64,000 nt of DNA from a virus (IMGVR_UViG_3300050821_009430:14458-78457), one strand, 5' to 3'. Shown: positions 6,311-64,000, counted from the first letter of the stretch. Numbers and translations: made by a program. Notes: a model not told the origin generated them from the letters alone.

Positions 6311-7620
6311 TCGATGTTTTTCAAAATGTCATCGCGGCCAACATGCTGGCGGTGACCCAATATAGCGGTTTTGAGGCCACCCGCAACATTGCCTACAAAG
6401 GCCGCCAGTTCAAGCGGCAGCCCGGCCGCTACCAGGGGGGCACTCACGGCTAAAAACGCATCACCGGCCCCCATAGTGTCAAAGCCGGTGCTTACAAACG
6501 CGGGTATGGCAACATCACCCACCAAGCAACCGTAGCGGCCCCGCGTGATGACTATATTTTCGGTTTGCAGCCTGTTGGCAATCCGCCGAACAATCTGCGG
6601 TAATGCAATATGACGGTCCCTGACCGTCAGCATGGCTTCCGGCTCGTCCACGCAAACATAATCGGCCCGGTGATAATTGAACACACTATTGAAACCGTAG
6701 TTCCCGGCATTGGCCTGGGCCGTCACGGCAAGGAACTTTGCGGTTTGCAACGCCTCACGCTCAAGCTGACCCAGCAAGCCATGACCAAAATCAAAAGCAA
6801 TGCACAAGTCAGCCTGAACAATCAGTTCACCAAGTTTCTTTCTAAAGCTGACCCGTTCGTCGGCTTCAATTTCTATTTCCCTGCTTGAATAAACCTCAAA
6901 CAGCTTGCGTGAGAAATCGGCATCGACAAAACGTGTTTTGGTGATGGTGGCAAAACTGGTAATCACTTCGGCCCCGCGCCACTCACCGTGCTTGGCGGCG
7001 GCCCGCACCCCACCATTGAACTTTTCCGTGTTGGTGCCTACCACCGCAAGGATAAATTCCTTTGACGGCTTGGCCAAAGGCTTCACGTAACGGTATTCGT
7101 CTATGACGGTTTCACCTATAAAGGCTATCTTGAGTTTATCCGCCCTTTCAAATGCCTGAAGAATATCTGGCAGGTATTTACGCACACCTTCAATATAGGC
7201 CAAGGCAGCATCGCTGAGTTTGACGGTACGCAATAGTTCGGTTGAGGACCACTTTTCGGCGGTAGTGATATGAAAGCTGCCGCCAATCAGCTCCACCGCC
7301 TCACGTTCAATGGCCAGATAAGGATTATCGGTATTGGCATAATCGGGGCCTTTGACGTAAACCGCAGGCTTGATTTTATAGATAGAATCAACCGCCGTGC
7401 CGGTTTCACTGATAATCACTTCGTCCACACATTCCAGCGATAATAATGCTTCGCGGCGCTGCTCGGCGGTGAAGTGCGGCCTACCGGGGCCTTTATTGAC
7501 GTGGGCATCGCAGGTGATGCTGACCACCAGCCGGTCACCCAAGGAACGGGCTTCCGTCAAATGACGGATATGACCCAAATGCAATAAATCAAAACAGCCA
7601 TGGGCTAGAACGGTATTCAT
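6295..7620 (-). CDS. bifunctional HldE/RfaE-like nucleotidyltransferase (N-terminal) + PfkB sugar kinase (C-terminal)
   Basis: ATG 7620: HGCFDLLHLGH, KGPGRP, YVKGPDY, WSST; the kinase half has DFGHG, ITRG..G, DTMGAGDAFLA. Domain order is reversed relative to E. coli HldE. Confidence 0.88.
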   Translation of the reverse strand: MNTVLAHGCFDLLHLGHIRHLTEARSLGDRLVVSITCDAHVNKGPGRPHFTAEQRREALLSLECVDEVIISETGTAVDSIYKIKPAVYVKGPDYANTDNPYLAIEREAVELIGGSFHITTAEKWSSTELLRTVKLSDAALAYIEGVRKYLPDILQAFERADKLKIAFIGETVIDEYRYVKPLAKPSKEFILAVVGTNTEKFNGGVRAAAKHGEWRGAEVITSFATITKTRFVDADFSRKLFEVYSSREIEIEADERVSFRKKLGELIVQADLCIAFDFGHGLLGQLEREALQTAKFLAVTAQANAGNYGFNSVFNYHRADYVCVDEPEAMLTVRDRHIALPQIVRRIANRLQTENIVITRGRYGCLVGDVAIPAFVSTGFDTMGAGDAFLAVSAPLVAAGLPLELAAFVGNVAGGLKTAILGHRQHVGRDDILKNIEWLLK

Positions 7621-7748
7621 GGAAAGTACCAATACCAAGCATATTCCAACAAAGGCCACCAAATCAAAATACCCAAAACGGTCACACTCATAAAACACAA
7701 CAGCAGAAGCGCCACGATCAGGTTTTCAATAGTGAAGTAGTGGATCAT
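7617..7748 (-). CDS. small membrane peptide (43 aa)
   Basis: Hand translation MIHYFTIENLIVALLLLCFMSVTVLGILIWWPLLEYAWYWYFP; stop overlaps the HldE-like ATG (ATGA). Confidence 0.45.
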   Translation of the reverse strand: MIHYFTIENLIVALLLLCFMSVTVLGILIWWPLLEYAWYWYFP

Positions 7749-8693: not shown

Positions 8694-8793
8694 CGTTTTG
8701 TTAGCTGGCGCACACATACCCGTTACAAGCGCCCTTGAAACCCTCACAGTGGCAGCCCTGACAAGCTGCGGTAACGGGCAGAAGGAAGAAGCT

Positions 8794-9315
8794 ATGAGCA
8801 ACGTGAAACATATCAGCTATTACACCAACGTCACGCAGCAGTGGTCAAAGCCCCTGGGGGCCAAACCCACTGAGGCGCAACTGTCACTGGCCCATGTGTT
8901 TGGGCGACCGGGCAAGCAAAGCTTGGCGGTGGCAATGGCGTTGCGTGACGGCGGCGTGACCGGCAGTCAGGTCAAACTGGCGTCAAGCCTGTTTGACGGC
9001 AAAGCTACCCCGCAGTTGAACCACATGCGTGACTTGATCAAGGCCCGCATGTTCAACCGTGAGGCGGTGCCGGGTGCCTACGCCATTACCCTGGGGCCAA
9101 AGGGTCAACAGTTTGTTGACCTGCATGGTGCCAAGGCGGTTGAAAAACTGGCTGACAAAGCGGCCGGTGACAAGCCCGTCAAGGCCGGCAAAAAGGCCAA
9201 GGTGAGCAAGCCGCGTAAGGCCAAGGCTGAAACCGTGACCATCACTGAAACCGCGCCTGAGGCGGTTGTGGTGCCGGTCAGCGGTGAAGCCCCGGCTAAG
9301 CACGCTACCGCGTAA
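8794..9315 (+). CDS. putative winged-helix DNA-binding protein with Lys/Ala-rich tail
   Basis: SD GAAGGA; FGRPGKQSLAVAMALRDGGVT resembles DUF3489-like HTH proteins and ORFs 18874 and 37108. Confidence 0.6.
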   Translation: MSNVKHISYYTNVTQQWSKPLGAKPTEAQLSLAHVFGRPGKQSLAVAMALRDGGVTGSQVKLASSLFDGKATPQLNHMRDLIKARMFNREAVPGAYAITLGPKGQQFVDLHGAKAVEKLADKAAGDKPVKAGKKAKVSKPRKAKAETVTITETAPEAVVVPVSGEAPAKHATA

Positions 9316-9321
9316 CTGAGC

Positions 9322-9354
9322 TAGCCCCGCGCAAATGCGGGGCTACTTTCATTT
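9322..9354 (+). terminator. intrinsic terminator
   Basis: TAGCCCCGC-gcaaat-GCGGGGCTA followed by CTTTCATTT, 6 nt after the stop. Confidence 0.75.
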
Positions 9355-9684
9355 GCTTGTCCTGCATCTTCCTCTAGAGTCACCCACATCTAATCCCATC
9401 GTCGTTTTCCAGACGAACCAAGCCATAACCTCATCGGCTCATCGCCCGTGAAAACTCATCCAGTGATCTTCCAGAGGAAGGGTAAGGCCGTCGTCCAGAG
9501 CGGCCTAAATGGCTCATCTCACTGGTTCAGGAAGTAATGATTGGGTGTCTTCGGGAGGAGCTGAAGCCGTCGTCGCCGTTGGCCGCCAAGCGACGCGTCG
9601 GCGACGATAGCTCCTAAAGATCACCTTGTCAAGCCCCTAAACCTCATCCAGCATGATCCAGACAACCCCAATAATCAATAAACC

Positions 9685-11149: not shown

Positions 11150-11641
11150 GGGGCCAGCCTAGCACTGAATGAACGAAGTTTCAGCCAAAACAAAGGACCC
11201 GCAGCTTTAGGGGCCACGGGTCCAACTTGCAGAACAGAATTACAAGGTAGTTTCCAAAGGTTTTCGGAATGGTTATGTTTTGGGTTTACTTCATGCCGTC
11301 GCTCTCCTGCGTAAGGGTTGATGTATGCTCAGGCAGTGCAGCAAATTTATGGGAGCGTTTCAAGCTTTTTATAAGAAAACGGCCCCGAAAGCGTGGAGCT
11401 CTCGGGGCCTCTATAAGTGGCTGTGGTGCCGTCCACTAAGGGGTTGCCATGACACCCCTCCGACCATGTGCCCGGAAAGCCACCGTTGTTTTCATCTGTG
11501 GGTCTTCAAACCCAGCACAACGGCTGGGGCATAAACTGAGTAAGAAGTGGCGTTCCACAGGGTATCTGAAAGAAGCGTGCCCATGAGCGGGGCTCTGGGG
11601 GAGGACGGGGGAAGTTGCAACCACCCACAGGCACGGTCAGC

Positions 11642-11685
11642 AACAAATCACAGGCTAAAAGAACTTTCAAGTAAAACTTACGATA
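11642..11685 (-). promoter_or_regulatory. leftward promoter with upstream TATCGT box
   Basis: TATCGT (11685-11680)-N9-TTGAAA (11670-11665)-N17-TTTGTT. Confidence 0.5.
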
Positions 11686-11749
11686 ACACTTCCTACATAT
11701 TCGTAAATCTGCCTGTTATATTCGTTTGCAATTTGCTTCAATCAGTTTG

Positions 11750-12340
11750 TGTGACCGGCAATCGCGTGGTTTAGTTGCGGTTTTGGCCGGTCACGTTTTG
11801 AAAGGGCGCTGATAACCCTTGCTGAGCCGCGCCAGTGAACTTGCGCGGCCTATGAACAATAACGGGCACACTTCAAACACCGCTAATCAATGGGCACCTA
11901 AAGCCCGCTGCACTTGATGGGAAGCTTATACAGATGCGCGCCCCACAATACGGCCAAGGCAACAAACGGGTGAAGCCGCCCGCGTTGCCGCGTGAGAATG
12001 CACTATTGGGCCGTGTGCAATTACCCCAACGTGAAAAACGCAAGTCACGCGAGGATAACAGGGTTGTGCATTGGGGTTTCGGCCGTGATTTTGGCCGTCA
12101 CCCGTGGGCCGAGCATCACTAAGCGGCAAGCGGCAGTAAAGAAATAACCCGTACCCCTACCGGGCCGCCTGAAACAGGGCGAGCGGTTTAACGTGAGCCT
12201 TTAGGCTCATAGTTAGCTGCGTCACGGGGCTACAAGCCAATTGCATGCCTTTGCTGCCCTGGCGCTCACTGTTGTGCACTACGCATGATTTGCAAGGCCA
12301 TAACGCAAGCTTGGCTGACTACAGCCCATACGTAAAATTC
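11750..12340 (+). ncRNA. candidate structured non-coding RNA / leader
   Basis: Series of stems: 11751-59/11786-94, 11802-06/11816-20, 11826-32/11843-49, 12194-200/12203-09; no convincing ORF. Confidence 0.35.
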
Positions 12341-12451
12341 CCAAGGGTTCCACGCCTTGGGCCGGGCGTTCCCCGCGTCATACTTGGGTGTATCTTTTCT
12401 TGTATGCCAAGCTTTTGTTCTCCTTGCTGAAAGCGCACCAATAACTGTATG

Positions 12452-14754: not shown

Positions 14755-15747
14755 ATGACTGAGACAATCAAAACAGCCCGTGATCTTTGCAAGTTCTATA
14801 TGGGTCAGAATATTCCTGTCCTTGTTAGTGGGCCGCCCGGCGTCGGCAAGAGCGATATGTGGCTGCAAATTGCCCAAGAGACGAACCGTGGCTTCATCGA
14901 TCTGCGCTTGGGTATGATGGACCCGACCGACCTTCTTGGCTTGCCAAGCGTTCACGAGGGCACCACGCGGTGGAACCGCCCGGCATGGTTCCCGGATGAG
15001 AAACGGGATGGCAAACAAGGCATCATCTTATTTGACGAGATTGCCGATATTGGCCGTGCCATGCAAAGCGCAGCCTATCAGTTGATCCTTAACGGCAGGG
15101 CTGGCCCGCATGTTCTTGGCGATGGATGGTACCGTTGCGCGGCAGGCAACCGACGCGAGGACCGTGCCGCCGCACAGGCCATGTCTACGGCATTGGCGAA
15201 CCGTTTCGCCCACATTGACATTGTGTCGGATGTGGATGCTTTCATTGAGTGGTGCAACAGGAACGATATTGACCCGCTAATCCCCGGTTTTATCCGGTTC
15301 AGGCCAAACCTGTTGCACAGCATGGAGGGGGCTGATCTCAGAGCCTTCCCTACCCCCCGTGCCTGGGCACGCGTCGCCAAATGTGTGCAAGCAGATGCCT
15401 CAATGCGCTTCCGTTTGGTGCAAGGCTTGGTAGGGGAAGGCCCTGCCGGCGAATTTGAGGTCTACATGCGTGGCCTTGACCTGCCATCGCTGGAAGACAT
15501 CCTGGCCGATCCGAAGCGTTGCCCCATCCCCAAATCGCCCTCGAGTAAATATGCCCTAAGCTCCATGCTGGCGCGCTACGCCAAGCGTGACAACTTCGGC
15601 AAGATTGTCACCTACATTTCACGGCCTGATTTTGGCCGTGATTTTGAGACCGTGACAGCATTGGATGCCACCAAGCGGGATTCGTCACTGTGCGATACCA
15701 AAGCCTGGATTGAGTGGGCCAATAGAAACAATGATCTTCATCTGTGA
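14755..15747 (+). CDS. MoxR/AAA_5-like AAA+ ATPase
   Basis: Walker A GPPGVGKS, DLLGLP, Walker B ILFDE, AAGN, ALANRF, FPTPRAW. Confidence 0.88.
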   Translation: MTETIKTARDLCKFYMGQNIPVLVSGPPGVGKSDMWLQIAQETNRGFIDLRLGMMDPTDLLGLPSVHEGTTRWNRPAWFPDEKRDGKQGIILFDEIADIGRAMQSAAYQLILNGRAGPHVLGDGWYRCAAGNRREDRAAAQAMSTALANRFAHIDIVSDVDAFIEWCNRNDIDPLIPGFIRFRPNLLHSMEGADLRAFPTPRAWARVAKCVQADASMRFRLVQGLVGEGPAGEFEVYMRGLDLPSLEDILADPKRCPIPKSPSSKYALSSMLARYAKRDNFGKIVTYISRPDFGRDFETVTALDATKRDSSLCDTKAWIEWANRNNDLHL

Positions 15748-16515: not shown

Positions 16516-17727
16516 ATGGTCAACAAAAAAGCATTTGATGCTGTTATACGAGCACGTACCATTTTAGTGGTAGGGCAACCTTTTTTCGGCACGCTCGCCC
16601 TGCATCTGAATGTAGTGGAGGTTACCAATCCGGCTCAGGTCAATACCATGGCCGTGGACGGCGTGAACCTCTATTTCTATGCACCGTTTGTTCTTGGGCT
16701 GAGTGAAGAGGAAATTGTTGGTGTCATTGCCCACGAAACGATGCACTGCGCCTATAGCCACTTCTCGAGACGTGGGCACCGCGATGCCCGCAAGTTCAAT
16801 ATTGCCGGTGACTTTAGAATTAACGACGACCTGAGAAAAGTTCCATTTACATTGCCAATGAAGCCAATCAATCTCAAACAATTGATGGCCGGCGAACAGG
16901 GTCATTTGTACGATCCCCAATTTGCCAATATGAGCACCGAAGAGATCTATGAAAAGATACCTGACCCGCCGCAAGCCCCGCAAGGGGGCAGGGGGCTTGA
17001 TGACGGCGGCTGTGGGGCCGTGCTTGATGCAGGCAGTGGCGCGGCTGATGGCCCTGACAAGGCCAGTGCTGAGCAAATAGCCCATGAATGGCAGGCTAAC
17101 GTGCGTATGGCTGTCAGCGTGGCCCGTGCCGCCAATGCGGGCAGCACACCGGGCTACCTTGAGCGGCTAGTCACGCAATTGAAGCGCCCCAAGGTTTCAT
17201 GGCGTGACCTGACCCGGCAGTTCATTGACCAGTCAATGACCACTGATTACAGCTACCGCAAGCCTAACCGCCGTCACATTGCCAGCGGTTTGATCCTGCC
17301 CGGCAGCGTGCCCGATGCTTTGCACGAACTGGTCATGTTCGTTGACTGCTCAGGCAGTATCAGCGACGAAATGATGCACAGTTATGTCAGCGAAGTGGCC
17401 GGTGCATTGGACGACGGAACAGCCGATAAGCTGTGGGTTGTCTACGCCGATGACGGGGTGCGGCATGTGGACGAGTACATGCCGGGTGACGTCGTGAAGT
17501 GCAAAACACTTGGGGCCGGTGGTACTAACTTCGATGACAGCTTCAAATGGCTTGTGAAGAATGCCCCCGATGCCGCCTGCGCTATTTACCTCACCGACAT
17601 GGAAACTGGATCGTTCGGCCAGGACCCCGGTATCCCAACTATGTGGGGGTGCTATTCGACCGAAGAAAGACTAAAATCAATCAAGCCACCATTCGGAACT
17701 CTTATCTTGGTGGAAGGCCCTCACTAA
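16516..17727 (+). CDS. DUF2201-like metallopeptidase + VWA domain protein
   Basis: TMAVDG, HETMH (HExxH), MIDAS VDCSGS, GGTNF, YLTD. Confidence 0.88.
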   Translation: MVNKKAFDAVIRARTILVVGQPFFGTLALHLNVVEVTNPAQVNTMAVDGVNLYFYAPFVLGLSEEEIVGVIAHETMHCAYSHFSRRGHRDARKFNIAGDFRINDDLRKVPFTLPMKPINLKQLMAGEQGHLYDPQFANMSTEEIYEKIPDPPQAPQGGRGLDDGGCGAVLDAGSGAADGPDKASAEQIAHEWQANVRMAVSVARAANAGSTPGYLERLVTQLKRPKVSWRDLTRQFIDQSMTTDYSYRKPNRRHIASGLILPGSVPDALHELVMFVDCSGSISDEMMHSYVSEVAGALDDGTADKLWVVYADDGVRHVDEYMPGDVVKCKTLGAGGTNFDDSFKWLVKNAPDAACAIYLTDMETGSFGQDPGIPTMWGCYSTEERLKSIKPPFGTLILVEGPH

Positions 17728-18382
17728 CATGTATCCATGCAGTCCGTTTCCATATTGCATAAATTGCAGTAACAGATATTCCAAATTCCTGCGCTAACAT
17801 AGGTCCACTCTTTTTACTCATATAAATATATCTAACCTGATTAAGCGTCAATTTAATATTTTGACGGGTTTTCTTATCTTTGTGGTAAGTATGATAACCT
17901 TGAACACATGCAGTGCCGTTCGGGCATTTACATTTACTGCCAAGTTTTAATTTTCTGGTTTCCCGCTTCCAAATTTGTTTAGTTCGAATATCATAAATCG
18001 TGTCATAACTTACCCCATATTGGGTGCTTAATTTTCTCATACATGCGTTTTTGGCTATAAAAATTTCCTTCACTTTTTTAGTGGTCAAAATGTTTCCACC
18101 AGAAGATTCGCCGTGTACTTGAGAACCATTAACAATTCTATCTTTGCTATTCTGTTCATGAAGAATGCACTCAACATTCCAAGGGGCATAAGGGCCTTTG
18201 TCGCCCTTGCGGGCCATCACATATCGGCCCCGTCCCCGCCCACGTTTCTTCATCCAATTATAGCCTAAATGATCCTCCCACCACTCAACCCATTCTTCAA
18301 AAGTAAATTTCCATACTATATTTCGTTCAAAAGCGGTTTGCCGTTGTTCTCTAAAACGTTGTTTTACTAAGTTAATACCCAT
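17702..18382 (-). CDS. HNH-type homing endonuclease with C-terminal HTH repeats
   Basis: WKFTFEEWVEWW, MARKGDKGPYAPWNVECILHEQN, two L...YGVS..TI..I HTHs; AT-rich and antisense; SD GAGG before ATG 18382. Confidence 0.8.
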   Translation of the reverse strand: MGINLVKQRFREQRQTAFERNIVWKFTFEEWVEWWEDHLGYNWMKKRGRGRGRYVMARKGDKGPYAPWNVECILHEQNSKDRIVNGSQVHGESSGGNILTTKKVKEIFIAKNACMRKLSTQYGVSYDTIYDIRTKQIWKRETRKLKLGSKCKCPNGTACVQGYHTYHKDKKTRQNIKLTLNQVRYIYMSKKSGPMLAQEFGISVTAIYAIWKRTAWIHVSEGLPPR

Positions 18383-18443
18383 CTTGCTTTCCTCACCGTA
18401 AATTAGTATAGTTACTATACCTATAGGCCATAGGAGGCAATAC

Positions 18444-18647
18444 ATGAATTGGTTTGCATTGCAACGCCAACAATGGATTAAAGAAACGATAGAAATATTT
18501 GGATTCATTAATAGAGAGCACCTGGAACTAAAATTTGGGATATCAACTCCCAAAGCTTCTAAAGACTTGCAAGAATATCAAAAGCTTTATCCTAAAACGA
18601 TAATTTATAATAAAACATCTAAAAGATATGAAAAAGGGCCACACTGA
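18444..18647 (+). CDS. stand-alone winged-helix domain of CapW/BrxR (WYL regulator) type
   Basis: RQQWIKE...FGFINREHL..KFGISTPKASKDL..Y....P....Y....KRY; SD AGGAGG; no WYL domain. Confidence 0.65.
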   Translation: MNWFALQRQQWIKETIEIFGFINREHLELKFGISTPKASKDLQEYQKLYPKTIIYNKTSKRYEKGPH

Positions 18648-18797: not shown

Positions 18798-18827
18798 CTT
18801 GACAGCCCTTTCTGCACCACTTATATC
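18798..18827 (+). promoter_or_regulatory. sigma70 (RpoD) promoter
   Basis: CTTGACA-N17-TATATC, close to the alphaproteobacterial CTTGAC-N17-CTATAT consensus. Confidence 0.7.
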
Positions 18828-18873
18828 CAACCGAATTGGTGCTGACTGCGGCCAACCCCAGGTGATTGTTCTC

Positions 18874-19476
18874 ATGCAGCCCCACGAAGAACCGGCCCGG
18901 CCGCTTGACCTGTCAATACCAGAGGATGGTTCAATACCGGCTTTTCTGAAACGCCCATTTGAAAACGAAAGTGAGAACGGTGCCATGTGGAACAAGTTGT
19001 GGAGTGAACAGCGTAAGGTCTACGCCAGCGACGAAGCCAAGGCTGCTGCTGAGCCTGAAGCCGAAGCACCGGCCGCAAAGCCCAAACCTGTGAAGGCTGA
19101 CAAACCGGCCAAAAAGGCAACGGCTAATGGTGCCAGCAAGCCCAAGGCTGAAGCCAAGGCCAAACCTGCGGCTAAGGCTGCGCCCGCTAAGGCCACTGCA
19201 AAGCCTGCCAAGGGCAAAGCCAAGGCTGAGCGTAAACAGGATCCGGCTAAACTGGACGCCTTTGGCTTCCGCAAAGAGAGCATCAAGTCCAAGGCAGCGG
19301 CCCTTTATGCCAAAGGCAAAGGTGCGACGCTGGCAGATGTTAAGGAAGCGCTTGGCAGCGTGCAATTCAACTTGCTTACGGAACTCAAGGAAAAGGGTTA
19401 CGAGGTTGAAGAGTCGGAAGTCAAGAACACCAACGGCCGTATGGTGACCCGTTACAAGATAGTTTCCAAAGATTAA
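18874..19476 (+). CDS. histone-like Ala/Lys/Pro-rich protein with C-terminal winged helix
   Basis: PAK repeats followed by FGFRKESIKSKAAALY..GKGATLADVKEALG; start could also be 18985. Confidence 0.7.
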   Translation: MQPHEEPARPLDLSIPEDGSIPAFLKRPFENESENGAMWNKLWSEQRKVYASDEAKAAAEPEAEAPAAKPKPVKADKPAKKATANGASKPKAEAKAKPAAKAAPAKATAKPAKGKAKAERKQDPAKLDAFGFRKESIKSKAAALYAKGKGATLADVKEALGSVQFNLLTELKEKGYEVEESEVKNTNGRMVTRYKIVSKD

Positions 19477-19557: not shown

Positions 19558-20124
19558 ATGATAGACCTTGCAGCAATTCCCGCTGAACGTCTTGCTATGT
19601 TGGACAACGCAAAGCTTTACAACGGTTCGCATGACGGCGGGACTGGTGGCCCAGATTGCAAGCATTGTGCCCGTGAATTGCTCTATGAGGTTGTTACTGG
19701 TAATCATGCAGATAAAGTGCCGCCCGGATGTTCGGTCATGATTGGCGTTCTGCCAACATTCAATGATGGCCCTTGGCTCAACGACGATCATCGCACGGAG
19801 GTGATGCGTCCCTACCTCAAGAAAATGCTAACCCTTGATCCAGCAAGGGATGCTGAACGAGTTTTCTATCTGCTCGATCACGTCTACCGAGCCGACCTCC
19901 CAACCATCTGCGACCTGTTTAAGGAGGATGAGGCTGCAAAAAAGTTGCGCGGGTTGGCACCAATCACCAATAACAAATCTGCGCTGCGTGCGCTGGATGC
20001 GATGCGTGCGCTGGGTGCGCTGCGTGCGCTGCGTGCGCTGGATGCGCTGGGTAAAAAGCAAATCGCCGAAGCGTGGGCCAAGAACTGTACCGACGCCCTC
20101 GATCTTATCTGCTCTATTGAATGA
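19558..20124 (+). CDS. conserved phage hypothetical protein with tripeptide repeats
   Basis: GSH...CAREL...G.HAD..PPGCS...FND...DDHR; SD AAGGAG. Confidence 0.7.
   Translation: MIDLAAIPAERLAMLDNAKLYNGSHDGGTGGPDCKHCARELLYEVVTGNHADKVPPGCSVMIGVLPTFNDGPWLNDDHRTEVMRPYLKKMLTLDPARDAERVFYLLDHVYRADLPTICDLFKEDEAAKKLRGLAPITNNKSALRALDAMRALGALRALRALDALGKKQIAEAWAKNCTDALDLICSIE
19981..20052 (+). repeat. 8 x 9-bp in-frame tandem repeat
   Basis: GCG(C/A)TG(CGT/GAT/GGT) x8, encoding ALR-ALD-AMR-ALG-ALR-ALR-ALD-ALG. Confidence 0.85.
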
Positions 20125-20411: not shown

Positions 20412-20639
20412 ATGGCCTACAGAAACGATAAGCCAGAAGTTGTGACCAAGCTACAACTACAAGGACGAACTAACTCATCTCAACCTTGGGGTATCTATAA
20501 TACCGTACCACTTGGTCACGAACCGGATGAAAACGAAGGCAAAGCCTTACGGCGTGCCAAGGCTGAGATTGCCCGGCTTAAGGCCAATTGGCATGATAAT
20601 TACGATCAAACCATTGAGTTCCGGGTAATTGAGCTATAG
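20412..20639 (+). CDS. hypothetical protein
   Basis: SD AAAGGA; 75 aa. Confidence 0.6.
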   Translation: MAYRNDKPEVVTKLQLQGRTNSSQPWGIYNTVPLGHEPDENEGKALRRAKAEIARLKANWHDNYDQTIEFRVIEL

Positions 20640-20978
20640 GCCGTTGCCCTTATAAGCCACGCTGATGCGGGTTTAGCTGAAAGGGCCACCCACGTAGCCC
20701 ATGAGCCTGAAGCCTTACCAGCAGTCACCCCAAGCCAGTTATACCATGCTTGGCGCTGCGTGCTTCATGGGGTACAGTCATAACCATCAAAGGAGGGCAA
20801 TCTCCTGCCGCAGCCGCGCGGGGCAACGGGCGAGTGTAGGCCACCGGGGTTTTGTCATAGCGGCCCCGGCCAAGCGAGCCACTACAAGTTATCCCTCTGG
20901 GCCTTCCTTTGACCGGCGTGGGTCATGACCAGCGAAGGGGTAAAAGCCCCGCAGTTTCTTTCACAAAAGGAATTAAGG

Positions 20979-21461
20979 ATGATTGAGCATACCGATCCGT
21001 TCTATCAGAAAATTGCCAGCACCATTGAACTACACGGTAGACAGCTACTAGCCATAGGGGCGGGGGCCAAGGAACCGGCATTTGCCTATTCAATAGGAAA
21101 TCATTTGAAGGGTTTCCCTGAATTGCTTATCATTGGCAACATGCAGCCTGAAATAGCCCAAAGCATTCTCAATAAATTATCAGATCAAGTAATTGCCGAG
21201 AATAAGGCATTCCTCAACGGTGCGCTGGTCAATATTGGGGGCAAGTTTGATTTGCAGGTGTGGGATACGACCATCATAGCCAAAGTGCAATACACCCTCC
21301 AAGCCACTGAGTTCTACCGGCATCAAGAATACGCCGTCCAGCAAATCATCCTGCCCGATCCAAAAGGGCATTACCCTACCGATAAGCGCTGCCACAAACG
21401 CTACCGCGTGCCGGTGCTGCGTAGCACTACAGCCATCATGCAATCTCTAAAGATTCACTAG
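20979..21461 (+). CDS. DUF4262-family protein
   Basis: PAFAYSIG....GFPELLIIG ... QIILPDPKG.YP. Confidence 0.7.
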   Translation: MIEHTDPFYQKIASTIELHGRQLLAIGAGAKEPAFAYSIGNHLKGFPELLIIGNMQPEIAQSILNKLSDQVIAENKAFLNGALVNIGGKFDLQVWDTTIIAKVQYTLQATEFYRHQEYAVQQIILPDPKGHYPTDKRCHKRYRVPVLRSTTAIMQSLKIH

Positions 21462-29976: not shown

Positions 29977-29991
29977 TAACGGGAGAGCGCG

Positions 29992-46483: not shown

Positions 46484-46489
46484 GTGTAA

Positions 46490-48328
46490 GTGTTTGACAT
46501 CATCAAAATTGAACTGGAAGATTTCAGGTCGTTCAGGGGAAAACACAGTTTCGAATTTCCAACCGAACCGGGGCTGTATGCCATAACCGGCGTTAATCTT
46601 GACAACCCCGAACTTGGTCCTAACGGTGTTGGCAAATCAACTCTTTTAGAAGCCATTTATTGGTGCAATTACGGGCGTACCACACGCGGTCTAAAAGCTA
46701 CTGACGTGATCAATTGGGGTGCCAAAGGCTGTGCCGTGACCGTACAGCAACTTATTGGGGGCCAGCACCTTACCGTCACCCGTACTCAAAGCCCCAACAG
46801 CCTCATGCTGAACGGGCAACCAGTGGATCAGACTGAGTTACAAGTAGCCCTACGTATTGGGCCTGAAGCTTTCACCTATGCCGTGATGGCCCCACAGTTT
46901 GGGCAAGCATTCTTTGATCTGACACCCAGTGACAAACTGACCCTATTTTCACAAATAATGGAACTTGATTTCTGGCTTGAAAAGAGCAAAAGAGCCTCTG
47001 AATTGGCCGAAGAAATACTTATTGAAAAATCAGCCGTTGAAAAGAATGCTGCGCGGCAAAATGGTCAGCTTGAAACAATTACAGATGACCTAAGGCAGTT
47101 AGCTGAAAAGGAAATTAAGTTCTCTGAGGATCAACGTAGCTTGATGGCTTCCATGACTGGGCAAATAACAGAAATACAAACTTCTATAAAAGTTCAGGGG
47201 AAGGTCCTAAACGAAACCAAATTAGCAATTGATGGGCTTGAAAAAAGACGAGACAAACTCATTGCCAAAATAGATACGTTACTGAATGAGAAGGATAAGT
47301 TTGAGGCCAACCACTCAGAAATACGAACTCAAAAATCAGTCATAGAAAACAGGTTAAGTGCTGTAACCGCTACCAGTAAGCGCCTTGAAGGTGTCGGCGC
47401 TGAATGCCCTACCTGTTTGCAGGAAGTAGATGCTGTTCACCTAACAACAGAAAAACAAAAGTACAAAAAACAATATCAGTCAATTTCAAAAGAACTAGAA
47501 GACTGTATTGAAGCTTTTGAGGGGGCATCTACCAATAAGGATAACATCGTCACTGCCATCAAATCAAACCAGAAAGATTTAGAAACCATAGAACAGAATT
47601 TAGAGGATTTTAGGATTGAGAGGAACAAGCTGTCATCTAAATCAGAACGGTGTGAAGCTGACTTGAGGCAGCTCCGCACCAACATTGCTAATGAACAGAA
47701 AAAACCCAATCCATATAGTATCTTGATTGAAGAAAAACAAGCACAAAAAGCCCTACTAAAAAAGGCCATTAAACAAACCACCGAAGAGATAGATCAACTA
47801 GCCAAGGATAATCTAACCGTCAATTATTGGATAGGTGGTTTTAAGAAGATACGCTTGTTTGTTATTGAAGAAACCCTCAGACAATTGGAACTTGAGATCA
47901 ATAACAATCTTGCCAGTCTGGGCTTGCTGACGTGGCGTGTAGAATTGGACGTGGAACGTGAGAACAAATCAGGTGGCATTACCAAAGGGTTTACGGTAGC
48001 CATACAAGCCTCAGGCAATGAAAAGCCAGTCAAGTTTGAGGCATGGTCGGGCGGTGAAACCCAACGGTTACGGCTGGCAGGTGACTTGGGCCTAGCCAAC
48101 CTGATTATGGAAAACGCGGGGTTGCGAAGCACTATTGAGTTCTTCGACGAACCGTCACGGCATCTAAGCCAAGAAGGAATGCTTGATCTGGCCGAAACTC
48201 TACATCAACGGGCCATAGATTCAAAAAAACGTATATTCGTAGTAGAACACAACTTGACAGATTACCCCTATACGGCAACGCTGCCCATCGTGAAAAGTTC
48301 AGACGGTTCCTATTTTGAGAGGGTGTAA
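46490..48328 (+). CDS. SbcC/Rad50/gp46-like SMC ATPase
   Basis: FRSF, NGVGKST, zinc hook CPTC, WSGGE, FFDEP, VVEH. Confidence 0.92.
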   Translation: MFDIIKIELEDFRSFRGKHSFEFPTEPGLYAITGVNLDNPELGPNGVGKSTLLEAIYWCNYGRTTRGLKATDVINWGAKGCAVTVQQLIGGQHLTVTRTQSPNSLMLNGQPVDQTELQVALRIGPEAFTYAVMAPQFGQAFFDLTPSDKLTLFSQIMELDFWLEKSKRASELAEEILIEKSAVEKNAARQNGQLETITDDLRQLAEKEIKFSEDQRSLMASMTGQITEIQTSIKVQGKVLNETKLAIDGLEKRRDKLIAKIDTLLNEKDKFEANHSEIRTQKSVIENRLSAVTATSKRLEGVGAECPTCLQEVDAVHLTTEKQKYKKQYQSISKELEDCIEAFEGASTNKDNIVTAIKSNQKDLETIEQNLEDFRIERNKLSSKSERCEADLRQLRTNIANEQKKPNPYSILIEEKQAQKALLKKAIKQTTEEIDQLAKDNLTVNYWIGGFKKIRLFVIEETLRQLELEINNNLASLGLLTWRVELDVERENKSGGITKGFTVAIQASGNEKPVKFEAWSGGETQRLRLAGDLGLANLIMENAGLRSTIEFFDEPSRHLSQEGMLDLAETLHQRAIDSKKRIFVVEHNLTDYPYTATLPIVKSSDGSYFERV

Positions 48329-49351: not shown

Positions 49352-49788
49352 AGATAATTGCATTCGATCTTGGCAAAAACTTCGCTTGGGCGTGGCGGGA
49401 CAAAAAAGGCATTATTGCCAAAACGATAGAACTTCAGGGGATCAGATCACACAGATTAGGTGAATTGGCAAAGCTCTTACCTTCCATCTTTCATAAGCAT
49501 CAATTTGACGTGGCAGTCTACGAAACACCATTTGCCCGTGGCCGCGATGCAACACGATCACTGTGGGGAATAGCCGGTATTATTGAAGCTTGCGCCACCA
49601 ACGCAAACATTGCAGTTCTTGACGTGGCAACCCCAACCATCAAAAAGTTTGCCACTGGGCATGGCAAAGCCCCCAAGGATGGGATGATTGAAGCATCACG
49701 TAAATTTGGGTACACAAACAATAACGAACACGAAGCCGATGCGGTATGTTTGCTCGCCTACGCCGAAGCAAATTGTGAGTTAGGATGA
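49348..49788 (+). CDS. RuvC-like Holliday junction resolvase
   Basis: IIAFDLG, VYETP, TIKKFATGHGKA.K, EHEADAV. Confidence 0.85.
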   Translation: MKIIAFDLGKNFAWAWRDKKGIIAKTIELQGIRSHRLGELAKLLPSIFHKHQFDVAVYETPFARGRDATRSLWGIAGIIEACATNANIAVLDVATPTIKKFATGHGKAPKDGMIEASRKFGYTNNNEHEADAVCLLAYAEANCELG

Positions 49789-50780
49789 ATTTTCTGATTT
49801 CAACCGATCTGCATCTGTCTGACCGCCCTCGTGACGCTTACAGGTTTGGCCTTTTCAAATGGATAATAAAGCAACAAGAAAAGTATAACATCGATGCTAC
49901 TTTTTTCTTAGGTGATATGACGGAGAACAAAGACCGTCACTCCTCAACCTTAGTAAATAAGATAATTGATGAATTGACCGGCTTAGAGCCCCCTATTTAT
50001 ATTCTCAGGGGCAATCATGATGGCACTTCGCCCAATAGCCCATTCTTCAAATTCCTGAATTGTATTGAAGGGCTTCGTTTTATCATCCAGCCAACCTACA
50101 ACAAAAAGCTGGATACAGTTTTCATGCCTCACTGTGCCAGCCAAGCTATTTTTGATAGTGCTTGCAAGGAGATGCCACATAAACCCAACATGTTTCTAGC
50201 TCATAATACGTTCGATGGGGCCGTAGCTGAAACCGGGGCACGTTTAACGGGCTTACAAGCCTCACCCATTGAGGCTTTGAAACCAGCTAGGGTGTATGCA
50301 GGGGACGTGCATGTACCTCAGCAGTGCGGCCCTGTGGCCTACGTAGGGGCACCTTATCACGTAAGGTTTGGTGACTGCTTCACGCCACGGGTGCTATTGA
50401 TCAAAAACAACCAAGAAACCGATCTACACTTTGATTGCCCACGCAAGCTGACCCTGAGTGTGCACGATGCAAAAGATATAGTCAATAATTGTGAGTTACG
50501 ACGTGGTGATCAAGTCAAGCTGATTATCGAAACGCCCCGTGAGGATGCTACGGGATGGCAAGCCAATAAAAATCGTATCCTTGCTGCCTGCCGCGATCTT
50601 GGTCTTGAGGTCTTTGGGGTAGAACTAAAATTGAATGAGCCAACCGAGCTTAAACATATCAAGCCAGAAGAATACCCCCACAAAAAATCCCCGCGTGATA
50701 TTCTTAAATTGTATTGCAAAGCCGAAAGTACCCCGGCTAATATCAGGCAAGCGGGTTTTGATTTACTAGGCGATAAATAA
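49785..50780 (+). CDS. SbcD/Mre11/gp47-like nuclease
   Basis: TDLH, LGD, GNHD, AH, GDVH, YVGAP.H..FGD. Confidence 0.9.
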   Translation: MNFLISTDLHLSDRPRDAYRFGLFKWIIKQQEKYNIDATFFLGDMTENKDRHSSTLVNKIIDELTGLEPPIYILRGNHDGTSPNSPFFKFLNCIEGLRFIIQPTYNKKLDTVFMPHCASQAIFDSACKEMPHKPNMFLAHNTFDGAVAETGARLTGLQASPIEALKPARVYAGDVHVPQQCGPVAYVGAPYHVRFGDCFTPRVLLIKNNQETDLHFDCPRKLTLSVHDAKDIVNNCELRRGDQVKLIIETPREDATGWQANKNRILAACRDLGLEVFGVELKLNEPTELKHIKPEEYPHKKSPRDILKLYCKAESTPANIRQAGFDLLGDK

Positions 50781-54209: not shown

Positions 54210-54794
54210 TCACGCTCCTGCCAATTGTTTGATTTCCGAGAAAATGATGTCTTGCGCCAAGCCCCAATCGTCCGGGTGAGGTGCTTCAATCTGAACGTAG
54301 CGGACCCATGTATTGCCATTGTTACCGAGCCGCCATTTACCGTCATCGAGGCTTTCACCATCGGCAACCGTAGGCGGTGAATCGAGCGGCAACGGGTAAT
54401 CTCCCAAGCCTGCCGTCTGCCACCACACCGGATTGAACACTAGAAGCGCGCGTCGGCAGTTGCTTGAAACCGACGTATGTTGGCCCCATACGCTACCCTG
54501 GAAACCGCCGATAAAATCAACAGCTCGCTTGCCCTCAAGGTTATGAAGATCGCTGCCGAGCGCGTTATCACCGAGACTGTCACCCACCATCGCTATCTTG
54601 TCGGTCTTGGGAAAGCGCATGATGTCGTCAAAGCGAGATTGACCGGCACTCCAGACATAAGGGCTGCTCATTACATCGGTGTTCGGCACCGCGCGTAGGC
54701 GCTTTATTAGATAGTTCTCACCATATCCGCCGCTCGCGGAATCATCAACGACAGAGCCACCCAATCCGAAGGAAATCGTAACGTGAACTGTCAT
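54210..54794 (-). CDS. alpha/beta-hydrolase (lipase/cutinase-like)
   Basis: FGLGG oxyanion region, nucleophile elbow VGDSLG (GxSxG), C-terminal His (APHPD). Confidence 0.6.
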   Translation of the reverse strand: MTVHVTISFGLGGSVVDDSASGGYGENYLIKRLRAVPNTDVMSSPYVWSAGQSRFDDIMRFPKTDKIAMVGDSLGDNALGSDLHNLEGKRAVDFIGGFQGSVWGQHTSVSSNCRRALLVFNPVWWQTAGLGDYPLPLDSPPTVADGESLDDGKWRLGNNGNTWVRYVQIEAPHPDDWGLAQDIIFSEIKQLAGA

Positions 54795-55378
54795 GCCGCC
54801 TCTGCAAATTTAATCGAGGGATCGAGCGTCATCATGGATTTTAGCATCGCCGCACAGCCAATTTGCTGGTCCCATACGGTAGCTGACCATTGGCGGTCTG
54901 CAATGTACTTGCCTTCCTGCTCAATGTTTGTTGCCCCCCAATCGTAAGGAGATGCTTCGTTATGATACTGCTCGTAACCAGTGCCGTTGTATAGCACCAA
55001 GAGCGTCAGCGTGCCACCAGCCGTCCAGTCTTTCCATTTTGCTGCGTAGGGAGCACACCGCGTCAGAGAGAAAACAGCAGCATCAATGAAACTTTGGAAC
55101 GGCCCGATGCCTCTAGGCTGATGCGTCGATATCTGATTCCAAGGATCACCTTGCGCAAGGCTGCACGCGAAGTTTTGAGACGCTTCGCGTTCGTGGATGA
55201 CGGCAATAACCCACCACGGAACGCTGGTTGTCGTTTCAATCTGTTGGTAGAGCGCTTTGGCCTTCGGAGCCACGAGAGCGGCGGCCACGCGCTCAACCTC
55301 TAGCTCACGGCTAGGTGTTATCTGGCATTTCTGCCAGCGCGACTCGTTCAGAACAATGAGATCCGGGATGCCGGTCAT
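54791..55378 (-). CDS. endolysin, lysozyme-like family
   Basis: VPWWVIAVIHEREASQNF...LAQGDPW..IS...PRG.GPF..F.DAA, YNG.GY, SPY.W.AT....GKY..D...D.QIGCAAML. Confidence 0.85.
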   Translation of the reverse strand: MTGIPDLIVLNESRWQKCQITPSRELEVERVAAALVAPKAKALYQQIETTTSVPWWVIAVIHEREASQNFACSLAQGDPWNQISTHQPRGIGPFQSFIDAAVFSLTRCAPYAAKWKDWTAGGTLTLLVLYNGTGYEQYHNEASPYDWGATNIEQEGKYIADRQWSATVWDQQIGCAAMLKSMMTLDPSIKFAEAA

Positions 55379-60608: not shown

Positions 60609-62162
60609 CAGTCTGATTGCAGAAGCAGGATCAAGTGAGGTAGCCGGTGATGGCAGCCACATTTGATTTTGAGCATAGGCTTGGGCCGGGGCGCTCTTTG
60701 CAATCGCATTGATGCCCTTACCGATCATTTTCAATGGTGTATCGATATAATAAGGGGCCAAAGCACCAAGGACCCCAGCTTCAAGATTATGTGCATACAG
60801 GCCACCGGCCGCACCGGCAGTTGCCGCCGCTGGGGGCAACCACGACATGGAATAGGGTTGGGGCCGTGTGCCAAGGATGCCTTGCCCGGCTTCGGCCAAC
60901 TGCTTGACGGGGGTATTCTTCATCATGGCACCCACCACCGGGCCAGGGCTGAGCGGCCCCGTAGTCCCTTTTCCGCCGGCTGCTTCGCTTGCCGCTTTCA
61001 AGCCCTGAAAGTCAGCCCAATCGCCCCGCCACTTCTGCCATGCCCCATTATAGGCACTTCCATTATTGGAACTATCTATGGCACTATCAAGCTGACTGCC
61101 CATATTACGCAATTCGGGCACGCCTGAGTTCTTCCAGCTATCGCTAAGGGCGTGATACTGCTTCCCGCTCAATTGGCCAGTAGACGATAATGTACTGAAA
61201 TCGGTAAGTGCCTTCTCAACATCTGGATTTTCAAGCGACGTGCCGCCATAGGCAAGCCTGTGCTGGCCTACAATATTGGCCAACCCATGTTGCAACCCTG
61301 GCGTCACCTGAAGATCAGTATTTTGTTCGAGATTTTGCACGGCACTAGATAACTGATTGCCACGCGCCGCGATCAAATCACTGGTAGGCAATGCCGAACC
61401 AGGTGGCCGTGTCACACCACCTTTGGACATCATGGCGTCACTGAGAGCCCCGCTTTGGCCCCCTGGTGGGGCACCTTCCAAAGTAGAGGCCAAACGGCTA
61501 CCGGAACGATCCGCCGCTGAAATTGGCACCCCATTAGACGCCAAAAGGTCAGCCATGCGGTTACGCTCAGGTAAAGCAGCAAATGGGGTGACAGCGGAAC
61601 GCACGCCGGCGGGCGCGCTATGGGCCGCCACTGCCCCAGCTATCCGGGCATAAGGTTCCAGTGAGGAGCCTTGCGTTCCTTCCCCGGCTGCTTCAGATCC
61701 TTGTGAGGCCAGCATACCCTTGGCCATAGAAGGTAAAAACTTCTCAGCCATCGCCGCCGAACCGGCTACGCTTGGTGCCCACTCCAAACCACTTTGTACA
61801 TATTTGCCCGGCGTGGTTTGGGCCTGATAAGCAGTGGATGGAAAATGTGATTCTATGGAAGGCATTACCCCTTCATAAGTGTATGGCTCAACCCCTTCAT
61901 GCAGTTGAGAAGCCACCCCACCCACTCTATTGCCGGGGCCGGCCAAATAATTGGAACCGGCCACTAAGCCACGTAAAGCAAGATCAGCCACGGTAGGTAC
62001 CGTTGTGACAGCTTGGGCTATGCCACGGGTTGCAGCGGCCGGTGCTACTTTCTTGATGTCTTCGGCAACGCTTGGCTTTTCAGCGCCTTTGGCAGCGCCC
62101 TGCTTCTGCGCAATCAGCGCATCGAGCTGCTCGTCGGTAAGATCAACAATCGGCTGAGCCAT
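60546..62162 (-). CDS. internal virion (DNA ejection) protein
   Basis: LTDEQLDAL N-terminus, YQAQTTPGKY, Gly/Ala-rich; position typical of podoviral ejection genes. Confidence 0.65.
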   Translation of the reverse strand: MAQPIVDLTDEQLDALIAQKQGAAKGAEKPSVAEDIKKVAPAAATRGIAQAVTTVPTVADLALRGLVAGSNYLAGPGNRVGGVASQLHEGVEPYTYEGVMPSIESHFPSTAYQAQTTPGKYVQSGLEWAPSVAGSAAMAEKFLPSMAKGMLASQGSEAAGEGTQGSSLEPYARIAGAVAAHSAPAGVRSAVTPFAALPERNRMADLLASNGVPISAADRSGSRLASTLEGAPPGGQSGALSDAMMSKGGVTRPPGSALPTSDLIAARGNQLSSAVQNLEQNTDLQVTPGLQHGLANIVGQHRLAYGGTSLENPDVEKALTDFSTLSSTGQLSGKQYHALSDSWKNSGVPELRNMGSQLDSAIDSSNNGSAYNGAWQKWRGDWADFQGLKAASEAAGGKGTTGPLSPGPVVGAMMKNTPVKQLAEAGQGILGTRPQPYSMSWLPPAAATAGAAGGLYAHNLEAGVLGALAPYYIDTPLKMIGKGINAIAKSAPAQAYAQNQMWLPSPATSLDPASAIRLLSMRAPDAAQAALNQPQQGQ

Positions 62163-64000
62163 TATTGTTTAGCAGGTTGCTGTTGTCTGCGCTGCTTCTC
62201 GGCTTGGAGATCTTCCAATGAAGGTTCGGCCCCCGGTGGTTTAGCACCTAAAATACCGCCACCTGAATTAGCCCCCTGTTTTTCATCGGCATCCAAGATA
62301 CTTTGGTAGTGATCTATCTGCTCGGGCGTAAACAATGGATTATTTTTCAAATAAGTATGGATAATTTGGTTCTGCCCGGCACTGGTAGGCCGATCGTTAG
62401 CGATGACAGGCTTGCCGGTTTGATCCGTCATCAAGTGTCCATCTTCATCCCATCGGTATCCTTGACGATACCAATTAGTCAGTTTGCCCAGCTCTGAAAG
62501 CTGATCCTGAGATTTAGCACTGATGTCAAGAATGGCCTGATTAGCCCCCAATGTATTATGCGGAGAGGCAGCCGCACGGTTGAGCAAATTGATCTCAGCC
62601 AAACGCACTTGCCCCAAACCCTGCAATTGTGACCTCATATCGCCAAGAATATTGGACGCTATGACTTTATCGAAAGCCTGATTATAGGCCACATTGGTGG
62701 AAGCACCCTTATCGCCCATAAAGGCTTTAGCCTTCTCCCACGCCATTTTAATGTCCGTGCCGGGGCCTTGGGTAAAATGTGGGTCATGAATTATCTTCTG
62801 CGCCAATGCGATCTGCGTACCCGCATTAAGGGCCTTATTACCGATAGTCTGGTAATTGGTGTAATCCTTATTGTAGCCTTCTATATCCTTACTATTGAAA
62901 TCCTTAGCCGCTTGTGTCTGAATTTCACGGTTCTGCGACCAATTAGCCAATTCACCCGGTGACATTCCATAAATATTGGGTGCCCCTTGCTGAGCCACCT
63001 TCTGCCCGGCTGGGGGCGCTTGTGCCGGGGCTGATTGTGGTGCTTCTTGGGGGGCAAACGAATAAGGTGGTTTCGTTGCCAATAATGGCGCTTGCTGTGC
63101 CGCTTCGGGGCCTTTGGTTATGACATCCGGCAAATTGCTCTGCCCACCACCTTCTTCGGCAAACTGAGATGCCTTGGGTGGCACCAAATCATGTGGCACC
63201 TCCTGTGCACCGGGGCCGGTTGATTGTGGGGCAGAAGGGACTGCTGCCGGGGCATTCTTTGCCCCAGGAAAACCAATAGAAGGTGCCCCAACACTACTGC
63301 CGGGGGGCGCTACAGTAATTGGCGTTGGCACCGAAACATCGCCAGCCTTGGTTTCACCCCAATGCACGTCGCCCGGAATAACCCAACGTTCGTTCGGGTT
63401 ACGTGGGTTGACAATAACATTGCTGCCATACGGGCCTTGCACCTGAAGCGGCTGATTTTGGCTGTAGTACATATCCGTAACAGCCTGCTTCTGTGCAGGG
63501 CTGGCTTGAGGGTTAGCCATGGTGGCTTCAAATTGCTGGCGTGTGACCGTAGGCCGCATGGGCAATGTGCCAGTGGGCTGATCGGTAGCACTACCACCCC
63601 GCATTGCAGGGGCCATGGACGGGGCAGGCAAGCCCGCTGGCGGCCTTTGCAGCGCCATAGCCGGGCTACCCTCAGTGCCGGGCGGTGGTGTAGCCAACGG
63701 GCCGCCTTGTGGCACAGTGGCAGGCTCACCATTGAAGCCCAACGCCTTGTTAAAGTTCTGCCCGTATTGAGCCACCGTCATGCCGTTCACATCGGTGGCA
63801 TTTGGGTTATTCATACCATGCTCACCAGCAAACCATGCTTTGGCCGCACCTTCGGGGCCATATTTCTGGGCAAGCTGGCCAAACTTGGTTCGATAAATAG
63901 CTTCCTGTGCTTCGGGGCTTTGCAAAAATTGCTGCGGTGTAAGGGATGTGCCGAGAACCTCCTTTGACCATTGAGGGATATTTGCGCCCATAACCTGATA
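62162..64000 (-). CDS. internal virion protein with lysozyme/transglycosylase-like domain (5' end outside window)
   Basis: YQVMGANIPQWSKE.LG..LTPQQFL.SPEAQEAI....FGQL..KYG..GAA.AWFAG; frame open to the window edge. Confidence 0.7.
   Translation of the reverse strand, partial: YQVMGANIPQWSKEVLGTSLTPQQFLQSPEAQEAIYRTKFGQLAQKYGPEGAAKAWFAGEHGMNNPNATDVNGMTVAQYGQNFNKALGFNGEPATVPQGGPLATPPPGTEGSPAMALQRPPAGLPAPSMAPAMRGGSATDQPTGTLPMRPTVTRQQFEATMANPQASPAQKQAVTDMYYSQNQPLQVQGPYGSNVIVNPRNPNERWVIPGDVHWGETKAGDVSVPTPITVAPPGSSVGAPSIGFPGAKNAPAAVPSAPQSTGPGAQEVPHDLVPPKASQFAEEGGGQSNLPDVITKGPEAAQQAPLLATKPPYSFAPQEAPQSAPAQAPPAGQKVAQQGAPNIYGMSPGELANWSQNREIQTQAAKDFNSKDIEGYNKDYTNYQTIGNKALNAGTQIALAQKIIHDPHFTQGPGTDIKMAWEKAKAFMGDKGASTNVAYNQAFDKVIASNILGDMRSQLQGLGQVRLAEINLLNRAAASPHNTLGANQAILDISAKSQDQLSELGKLTNWYRQGYRWDEDGHLMTDQTGKPVIANDRPTSAGQNQIIHTYLKNNPLFTPEQIDHYQSILDADEKQGANSGGGILGAKPPGAEPSLEDLQAEKQRRQQQPAKQ

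Follow-up and report, generated by a model that had tools for sequence, protein, structure and literature searches.

Background

Regions devoid of restriction sites that work before or without protection are familiar from phages, e.g. the pre-early region of T5 and the end of T7 that enters first, with ocr, and chloroviruses have pairs of short-motif methyltransferases and nickases (motifs such as CCD and RAG). Phages and prophages moreover carry adenine methyltransferases of near-zero specificity that give broad anti-restriction cover (PMC3299994), and in alphaproteobacterial phages methyltransferases adjoin the replication modules (PMC5537653). Here we analyse a 64,000-nt stretch of viral DNA, hereafter the window (bases 14458-78457 of the 78,457-nt IMG/VR contig IMGVR_UViG_3300050821_009430; G+C 50%), for which an earlier reading (the original prediction) had described recurrent tracts where GA occurs only as TGA and TC only as TCA, i.e. 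tracts free of VGA (AGA, CGA or GGA) and its complement TCB.

We report that selection clears these tracts of VGA/TCB entirely, both through the choice of synonymous codons and through exclusion of certain dipeptides, and that the one tract (island) found in all studied genomes of this clade of soil phages is the complete promoter/operator-to-terminator unit of a protein with a winged-helix domain and a basic tail. The distinction between T and V as the flanking base also governs avoidance of palindromes genome-wide. We propose, with moderate confidence, that VGA/TCB marks the sites of a protective DNA modification, for which the methyltransferase encoded at 37985-38896 is probably responsible, that sites which the modification could not cover have been purged, and that the tracts are islands selected to be free of modification; the motif is one that we infer from avoidance patterns only.

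VGA/TCB-free tracts in the window

VGA/TCB occurs on average once per 14.3 nt in the window, and the longest gaps between sites are 455, 339, 228, 204, 177, 172, 171, 171, 159, 158, 140, 135 and 122 nt. Ten gaps are at least 150 nt long while a geometric model predicts 0.1-0.16, in agreement with the original claim that such runs are very unlikely by chance; the extreme gap amounts to up to 32 times the mean spacing in the window and 61-83 times in related genomes. All 14 tracts first described could be verified. Twelve are perfect and the tract at 50216-50413 has the single exception already reported (GGA at 50303), while 22472-22649 includes an unreported CGA at 22640, so that its clean run stops at 22639. 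The tracts were said to recur every few kb; their spacings vary between 418 and 13404 nt, without periodicity.

Across 13 tracts every GA/TC dinucleotide (126/126) is present as TGA or TCA, compared with 36-38% genome-wide. The rule is strand-symmetric (80/80 TGA and 46/46 TCA) and independent of coding, as originally stated, genic and intergenic tracts obeying it alike, and no longer motif underlying it was found in the tracts. We ranked 128 motif classes of the same form by their gaps in the window's own genome (G000) and in four related phage contigs (G001-G004; 50-80% protein identity), and VGA/TCB came first in G000-G003; TA- and CG-based classes also have long gaps, through compositional heterogeneity.

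Synonymous shuffles, done gene-wide or in blocks of 60 codons so as to retain the amino acids and the local codon usage, reduced the maximum gap to ~160-206 nt, a residue set by the intergenic tracts, which stayed unshuffled, and left 1.8 gaps of at least 150 nt compared with 10 in the real sequence. The coding tracts thus vanish, and the outcome that the original prediction had named as contradicting it, runs of the same length in shuffles of this kind, was not observed.

That the tracts have no function and reflect chance, local composition or codon usage, foreign patches or an assembly artefact is scarcely credible. They are GC-richer than the genome (58% vs 50%), some short ones lie in Pro/Ala/Gly-rich low-complexity segments that are naturally poor in GA/TC, and the long gaps of the TA- and CG-based classes point in the same direction. 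Such an explanation is nevertheless contradicted already by the shuffles and by the metagenome loci and forbidden-dipeptide counts given below; it also leaves aside the uniform T/A context of the 126 dinucleotides and the recurrence of islands in independent assemblies of many samples.

Two further candidates were tried and rejected. A diversity-generating retroelement or templated hypermutation is not indicated, as no repeats linking the tracts were found and no reverse transcriptase is present among ~60 proteins from the window and L012 (Pfam and PHROGs, with small accessory and tail open reading frames left out). Against erosion by a C-to-T deaminase, the tracts are GC-rich and TTB/VAA is not enriched. 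The tracts contain no tRNA genes and no Rfam families at the gathering threshold, and their folding as RNA or DNA shows a weak tendency only, which is not decisive (mean z -0.8 to -1.0 vs -0.2 ± 1.2 in controls).

Conservation in related phages

Searches for near and distant relatives in phage databases found none. The four related contigs all carry tracts of the same kind, up to 972 and 1255 nt long. Islands are kept in register in G001 and G002, e.g. in the middle of the DUF2201 gene, in the genes starting at 18799 and 22369, at fraction 0.76-0.85 of the DnaB-like helicase gene and in the primase gene, and these islands persist despite 30-50% protein divergence. Segments orthologous to the window's islands contain 26 (G001) and 29 (G002) sites where 112 and 122 are expected. 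Those of G003 and G004 are normal (62 vs 77 and 66 vs 66 expected) apart from one locus.

Nucleotide identity within a tract is not above that of its flanks, which argues against recent import or recombination of the tracts and indicates that they are kept by selection in each lineage. The same result speaks against a lack of function, and neutral patches would have regained sites at this divergence. G001 (54650-54835) and G002 (46306-46504) have in common an island at the 3' end of a DUF4262 gene that is missing from the window at 20925-21461; islands are thus gained and lost between close relatives.

The region at 27200-35500 of the window is a lineage-specific accessory region, a block of small open reading frames with no homologue in the four relatives. 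Its VGA/TCB density is one per 10.6 nt and its maximum gap 66 nt, so the original observation that tracts are missing from 27-35 kb was correct; most of the tail region is likewise without islands.

The core island and the winged-helix protein

The core island (8694-9359, plus strand) is the only one common to all five genomes, with lengths of 572, 1309, 747, 1255 and 824 nt. It covers the whole cassette of the gene for the winged-helix/basic-tail protein (ATG at 8794, TAA at 9313-9315), from the putative promoter region to just beyond a terminator hairpin at 9322-9345, this terminator being the sole feature for which the promoter/terminator scan was informative. In the window the exceptions are the Shine-Dalgarno region (GGA/AGA, 8780-8789) and one CGA at 8905; in G001-G004 the cassette is free of VGA/TCB. 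The edges are sharp: neighbouring genes are dense in VGA/TCB and then there is none, with the limits just past the terminator hairpin downstream and 100-380 nt ahead of the start codon upstream. Apart from the winged-helix gene no complete motif-free gene was found. Among further metagenome loci with homologues of the protein (down to 41% identity) about 20 of 22 have a motif-free stretch of 460-1378 nt over the gene, the two most distant being partly or fully normal.

The coding sequence shows how the rule is obeyed. In 8794-9315 Asp and Glu codons always follow a codon ending in T, codons of the form NTC are followed by A, and Ser is encoded by AGY or TCA. Several dipeptides cannot be encoded under these constraints ([K/E/Q/M/W]-[D/E], W-[I/M/T/N/K] and F-P), and in 104 homologous proteins they occur once where residue shuffles predict 349. 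Selection at the level of DNA thus forbids specific dipeptides across a whole protein family, a rare situation that is shown directly here.

Residues 10-110 of the protein model, a helical N-terminal domain, have a pLDDT above 90 and include a helix-helix-hairpin wing, and the Lys/Ala-rich tail is disordered. No Pfam, PHROG or NCBIfam match was obtained. The layout of winged helix plus disordered Lys/Ala-rich tail may be compared with linker histones, while the structural matches (PDB) are of the MarR type only and weak (E at least 0.015).

In G003 the only two TGTTACA-N-TGTAACA palindromes of the genome (C1:13757-13774 and 14917-14933; L027) flank its 1255-nt island, which lies 13.7-15 kb from a terminal repeat; such palindromes mark the island in G003 only and in none of the other genomes. 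This arrangement suggests that a local regulator, which may be the winged-helix protein itself, uses them as paired operators. Since the island is bracketed by them, it contains operator and promoter DNA and not merely the transcript.

This bears on an RNA-level explanation, in which transcripts of the tracts must resist an endoribonuclease that cuts VGA and UCB. The core island does approximate a transcription unit ending at its own terminator. We nevertheless consider the explanation very improbable: every tract is strand-symmetric, promoter/operator DNA upstream of the gene falls inside the islands, an mRNA would not be saved by islands that cover part of a gene, and the palindrome purge described below is left unexplained.

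Another possibility is a phage chromatin, in which an abundant coat protein recognises VGA/TCB, whether modified or unmodified, and the islands are windows free of coat. The candidates for such a protein would be the winged-helix/basic-tail protein or a second basic protein (18799-19476); its own gene would escape self-silencing and the other islands would serve as entry sites for replication and transcription factors. It is in favour of this idea that the product of the sole gene that is motif-free throughout combines a winged-helix domain with a disordered tail rich in Lys and Ala, that islands are mostly 110-250 bp, and that the palindromes around the G003 island suggest binding of a local regulator. 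We regard it as unlikely, since no common k-mer, positive binding motif or repeat is shared among the islands, absolute discrimination on a degenerate 3-bp motif would be unusual, and a coat protein alone does not account for the palindrome purge. It would be compatible with the modification proposed here if the protein reads the mark. One reading along these lines is a two-state "epigenetic map", with most DNA marked at VGA/TCB and a fixed set of islands permanently unmarked. The winged-helix protein, with the universal island as its own gene, would read whether the mark is present and so divide the phage DNA into coated and open parts; this would be a phage chromatin encoded in the sequence, from which the expression of its architect is exempt. 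We think this reading improbable to the same degree as the coat protein itself.

Flank-dependent avoidance of palindromes

The GANTC sequence is overall depleted 2-3-fold in the clade genomes. Among gapped heptamers, TGANTCA is avoided most strongly in each of the five (0, 0, 1, 1 and 1 copies vs 32-46 expected; pooled 3 vs 197 expected from trinucleotide frequencies), and this avoidance is limited to the 1-nt spacer. Expected counts for flanked sites presume independence of flank and core, which was checked only via non-palindromic and comparison-phage controls. With T...A on both sides GANTC is found 3 times vs 85 expected, GATC 147 times vs 268, and GAATTC, GATATC, GAGCTC and GACGTC together 2 times vs 29.8. 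GA...TC palindromes with such a flank on one side only are tolerated, and doubly flanked GA-NN-TC occurs at a normal level if its centre is not palindromic (142 vs 151).

The flank-dependent purge was not seen in three comparison phages (TGANTCA 21/31, 20/29 and 9/16, seen/expected), which are weak outgroups with only ~3 genes in common with the clade. It was replicated in 20 independent metagenome loci (24 vs 44, 3 vs 18 and 1 vs 8.2 expected; control 22 vs 15).

One assumption would cover the purge: some feature of V-flanked GA/TC would protect restriction sites, with a single strand being sufficient, and T-flanked GA/TC would be without this feature. Otherwise one would need six separate restriction systems, each specific for 7-8 bp.

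Avoidance of another kind is present in the same genomes. GGGCCC, CCGCGG and CCCGGG are seen 4, 4 and 6 times in the pooled five genomes vs ~92-124 expected (0.03-0.05 of expectation), and AGGCCT, ACGCGT and CGTACG are depleted 4-5-fold. Depletion of these sites is classical restriction avoidance, beyond the reach of a modification directed at GA/TC.

The purge also helps to weigh the possibility that a host defence enzyme acts at VGA/TCB and damages the DNA or blocks it while the genome as such survives; this could be a nickase, a deaminase or a DarT-type ADP-ribosyltransferase acting on single-stranded DNA. On this view the islands would be zones of immunity, the winged-helix gene would be a counter-defence or an essential regulator whose expression has to continue under attack, and the palindrome purge would be an unrelated effect of restriction. 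Exclusion that is absolute, strand-symmetric and limited to defined regions would suit such an enzyme, as would a core island matching one autonomous expression unit and the location of most islands in early/replication genes; modifiers of single-stranded DNA with short motifs are known. We know of no enzyme with VGA specificity, partial-gene islands of 110-340 nt have no obvious benefit if the rest of the gene is hit, and a separate cause is needed for the purge of six palindromes by the same T-versus-V distinction. We therefore consider the host enzyme a possible but doubtful explanation, for its account of the winged-helix gene as well as for its account of the islands.

The mirror image of our proposal places the modification at TGA/TCA, such that islands are fully modified at GA/TC and doubly modified palindromes are purged via modification-dependent nucleases. 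A specific TGA motif is enzymatically simpler than "not T", and DpnI-type enzymes, which cut only fully methylated GATC, would suit the depletion of TGATCA. Modification-dependent nucleases would be required also for GANTC, GAATTC, GATATC, GAGCTC and GACGTC, and a nuclease dependent on methylated GANTC clashes with a CcrM-bearing alphaproteobacterial host, the type of host suggested by the GcrA and CtrA-like genes (Pfam hits) of the phage. The mirror image is in our view quite unlikely.

The candidate methyltransferase and other modification genes

The candidate modifying enzyme is a putative DNA amino-methyltransferase of 303 aa (37985-38896, plus strand), the only recognisable DNA-modifying enzyme in the genome; an island of 120 nt (38016-38134) covers the start of its gene. 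All five clade genomes have the enzyme (~70% identical), and the three comparison phages lack it. Both motif I (DAFAGG) and motif IV are invariant; motif IV reads TCPPY instead of D/N/SPPY and thus begins with Thr-Cys, Cys taking the first of the usual positions, and the order I before IV holds for 119 of 120 homologues. PF01555 matches both halves (C-terminal half E = 1e-10), and the best PDB profile match is the DNA modification methylase 2zie (3.8e-8). The halves resemble those of the beta-class DNA methyltransferases 2zie and MboIIA, in swapped order. A CcrM-type GANTC methyltransferase was considered and rejected, as the beta-class order (IV before I) is not present and the protein lacks the C-terminal domain of CcrM. 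The family has ~1000 metagenome homologues, most above 65% identical.

Other routes to modified DNA were also examined. Modification with 7-deazaguanine (DpdA) at GA was rejected, since PF01702 is absent from all five genomes with positive controls, and so was thymidine hypermodification (5-hydroxymethyldeoxyuridine), as the ThyA-like PF00303 is absent from all five. Family searches found no C5-type or Dam-type methyltransferases in the clade genomes; the search for MT-A70 was uninformative because its controls were silent. The phage has a heptose-type sugar operon, but its transferases look like protein or heptose glycosyltransferases, apparently protein-directed, and one of them is encoded by a TPR-GT9 gene of the head module. 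This speaks weakly against the sugar pathway as a DNA modifier, and this part of the original interpretation is not supported, while modification-free windows involving the methyltransferase, which it also put forward, are the best-supported reading in view of the flank-dependent GA...TC purge. The genome further encodes its own replisome, RecA, SbcCD-like proteins, a SNF2 helicase, GcrA and a CtrA-type DNA-binding domain.

Proposed mechanism

We suggest that the DNA of the clade would bear a base modification at GA/TC not flanked by T.../...A, and that the mark is most probably a methyl group from the single recognisable DNA amino-methyltransferase of the clade. Modification of one strand would be enough to shield any restriction site holding such a GA, thereby giving broad anti-restriction cover, and palindromic sites flanked by T/A on both sides would be uncoverable and be purged from the genomes. 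If VGA/TCB is modified, it follows that the tracts can never be modified on either strand. The core unit and ~10-20 windows of 110-340 bp, mostly in early/replication genes, would then have to work whatever the state of modification; possible reasons include binding of a regulator or of RNA polymerase, or escape from a protein that recognises the mark.

Several points weigh against this proposal. Depletion of TGATCA is confined to G000-G002, and the contrast in gene content between these and G003/G004 revealed no obvious nuclease or reader gene. The predicted depletion of TCATGA relative to TCTAGA, TCGCGA and TCCGGA failed (161 vs 172), and GANTC with V/B flanks is still ~2-fold depleted. The top Foldseek matches of the methyltransferase are tRNA m2G methyltransferases (TrmN and Trm11). 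In view of these folds, the odd TCPPY motif and the motif order, the enzyme may have a different base as its target, or even RNA. Only one clade links the methyltransferase to the pattern, and their co-occurrence is phylogenetically confounded because the comparison phages share so few genes with it. Finally, the model gives no reason why unmodified islands should exist, nor why G003 and G004 keep the core but few others.

If the proposal is true, sequence alone suffices to deduce a modification motif and its limits, via flank-dependent purging of palindromes and motif-free islands, which would offer a route to predicting modification motifs in uncultured phages. The islands moreover raise the question of which phage functions need DNA that can never be modified. 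The specificity of the methyltransferase family, with its unusual motif IV and motif order, is worth determining in its own right.

Other islands and neighbouring genes

Thirteen of 16 islands are located within early/replication modules, and island sizes cluster at 110-250 bp. The island at 6335-6559 lies in the 3' part of an HldE-like gene (6295-7698, minus strand), and the orthologous segment of G003 is not depleted. Two islands are intergenic: 11765-11919 is downstream of a small gene (11547-11774), and 12183-12338 adjoins a terminator-like hairpin (12340-12361, minus strand) and a promoter-like site (12311-12338, plus strand). The island at 16958-17293 is within a DUF2201 metallopeptidase/VWA gene (16516-17727); the corresponding islands of G001 (249 nt) and G002 (163 nt) are shorter and lie in register with it. 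Wedged after this gene is an HNH-endonuclease-like gene (17702-18553, minus strand) that was found elsewhere only in G002 and G004 (38-39% identity), a patchy presence as expected for a mobile gene of the homing type.

The second basic DNA-binding-like protein (18799-19476) has an island in its Lys/Ala/Pro-rich linker (19065-19238) that is common to G001, G002 and G003. Between this gene and the next island, a gene without family match (19558-20124) contains six tandem 9-nt units (TGCGCTGCG-like) at 19980-20060. The island at 20623-20791 extends across the junction of two small genes (20412-20639 and 20701-20928), and 22472-22639 lies in the N-terminal part of the gene 22369-22917, with 0 sites in the orthologous segments of G001 and G002. 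The DnaB-like helicase gene contains a short island (24183-24279; fraction 0.76-0.83), and G001 (165 nt) and G002 (127 nt) have islands in register with it. In the SNF2 helicase gene (25122-26681) the island is at 25672-25872, and the orthologous segments of G001 and G002 are about half depleted; in the primase gene (35526-36479) it is at 35795-35962, and G001 and G002 have 1-2 sites where 11 are expected.

Further downstream an SbcC/SMC-like gene (46490-48328) contains the island 46693-46824, and the tract with the single GGA (50216-50413) is in a metallophosphoesterase gene (49785-50780). The island at 63620-63756 lies in a Pro/Gly/Ala-rich segment of the gene 62162-63991 (minus strand) and is partly compositional.

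Comparison with known systems

No published description of this pattern was found in the literature searched on TGANTCA and motif avoidance. The near-total, lineage-specific loss of short palindromes (TGANTCA as well as GGGCCC, CCGCGG and CCCGGG) resembles classical restriction-site avoidance in phages. Classical avoidance is independent of the outside bases, whereas here GATC, GANTC and the four GA-xy-TC hexamers are depleted only with T...A on both sides, and local islands lack a non-palindromic, degenerate 3-nt motif altogether.

The short-motif methyltransferase/nickase pairs of the chloroviruses follow the same logic as we propose. Hia5, Hin1523 and Nme1821 (PMC3299994) offer a likeness in that one enzyme with a degenerate motif of 2-3 nt would mark a high proportion of sites and block many restriction enzymes. 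In contrast to these and to the chlorovirus enzymes, the present methyltransferase belongs to a different family (motif I before IV, TCPPY) and its motif has been deduced from avoidance only. To our knowledge, unmodifiable islands have not been described for either the broad-specificity or the chlorovirus systems.

There is also a likeness to phage GANTC methyltransferases that mimic CcrM (PMC5537653), as the methyltransferase here heads the replication module, the phage has GcrA and CtrA-like genes, and GANTC is hit hardest. Unlike in those phages, the sequence that is purged, TGANTCA, is one that a plain GANTC enzyme would protect, the tract rule ignores the NTC half, and the enzyme has neither the beta-class motif order nor the CcrM C-terminal domain.

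The islands differ from the site-free regions of T5 and T7 in being many, internal and small, and in excluding a motif of 3 nt, such that the exclusion costs choices of amino acids. By analogy only, the unmethylated islands of eukaryotes are also defined regulatory and gene regions free of a pervasive mark; unlike these, which protect motif-rich DNA, the phage would avoid the mark by deleting its target motif.

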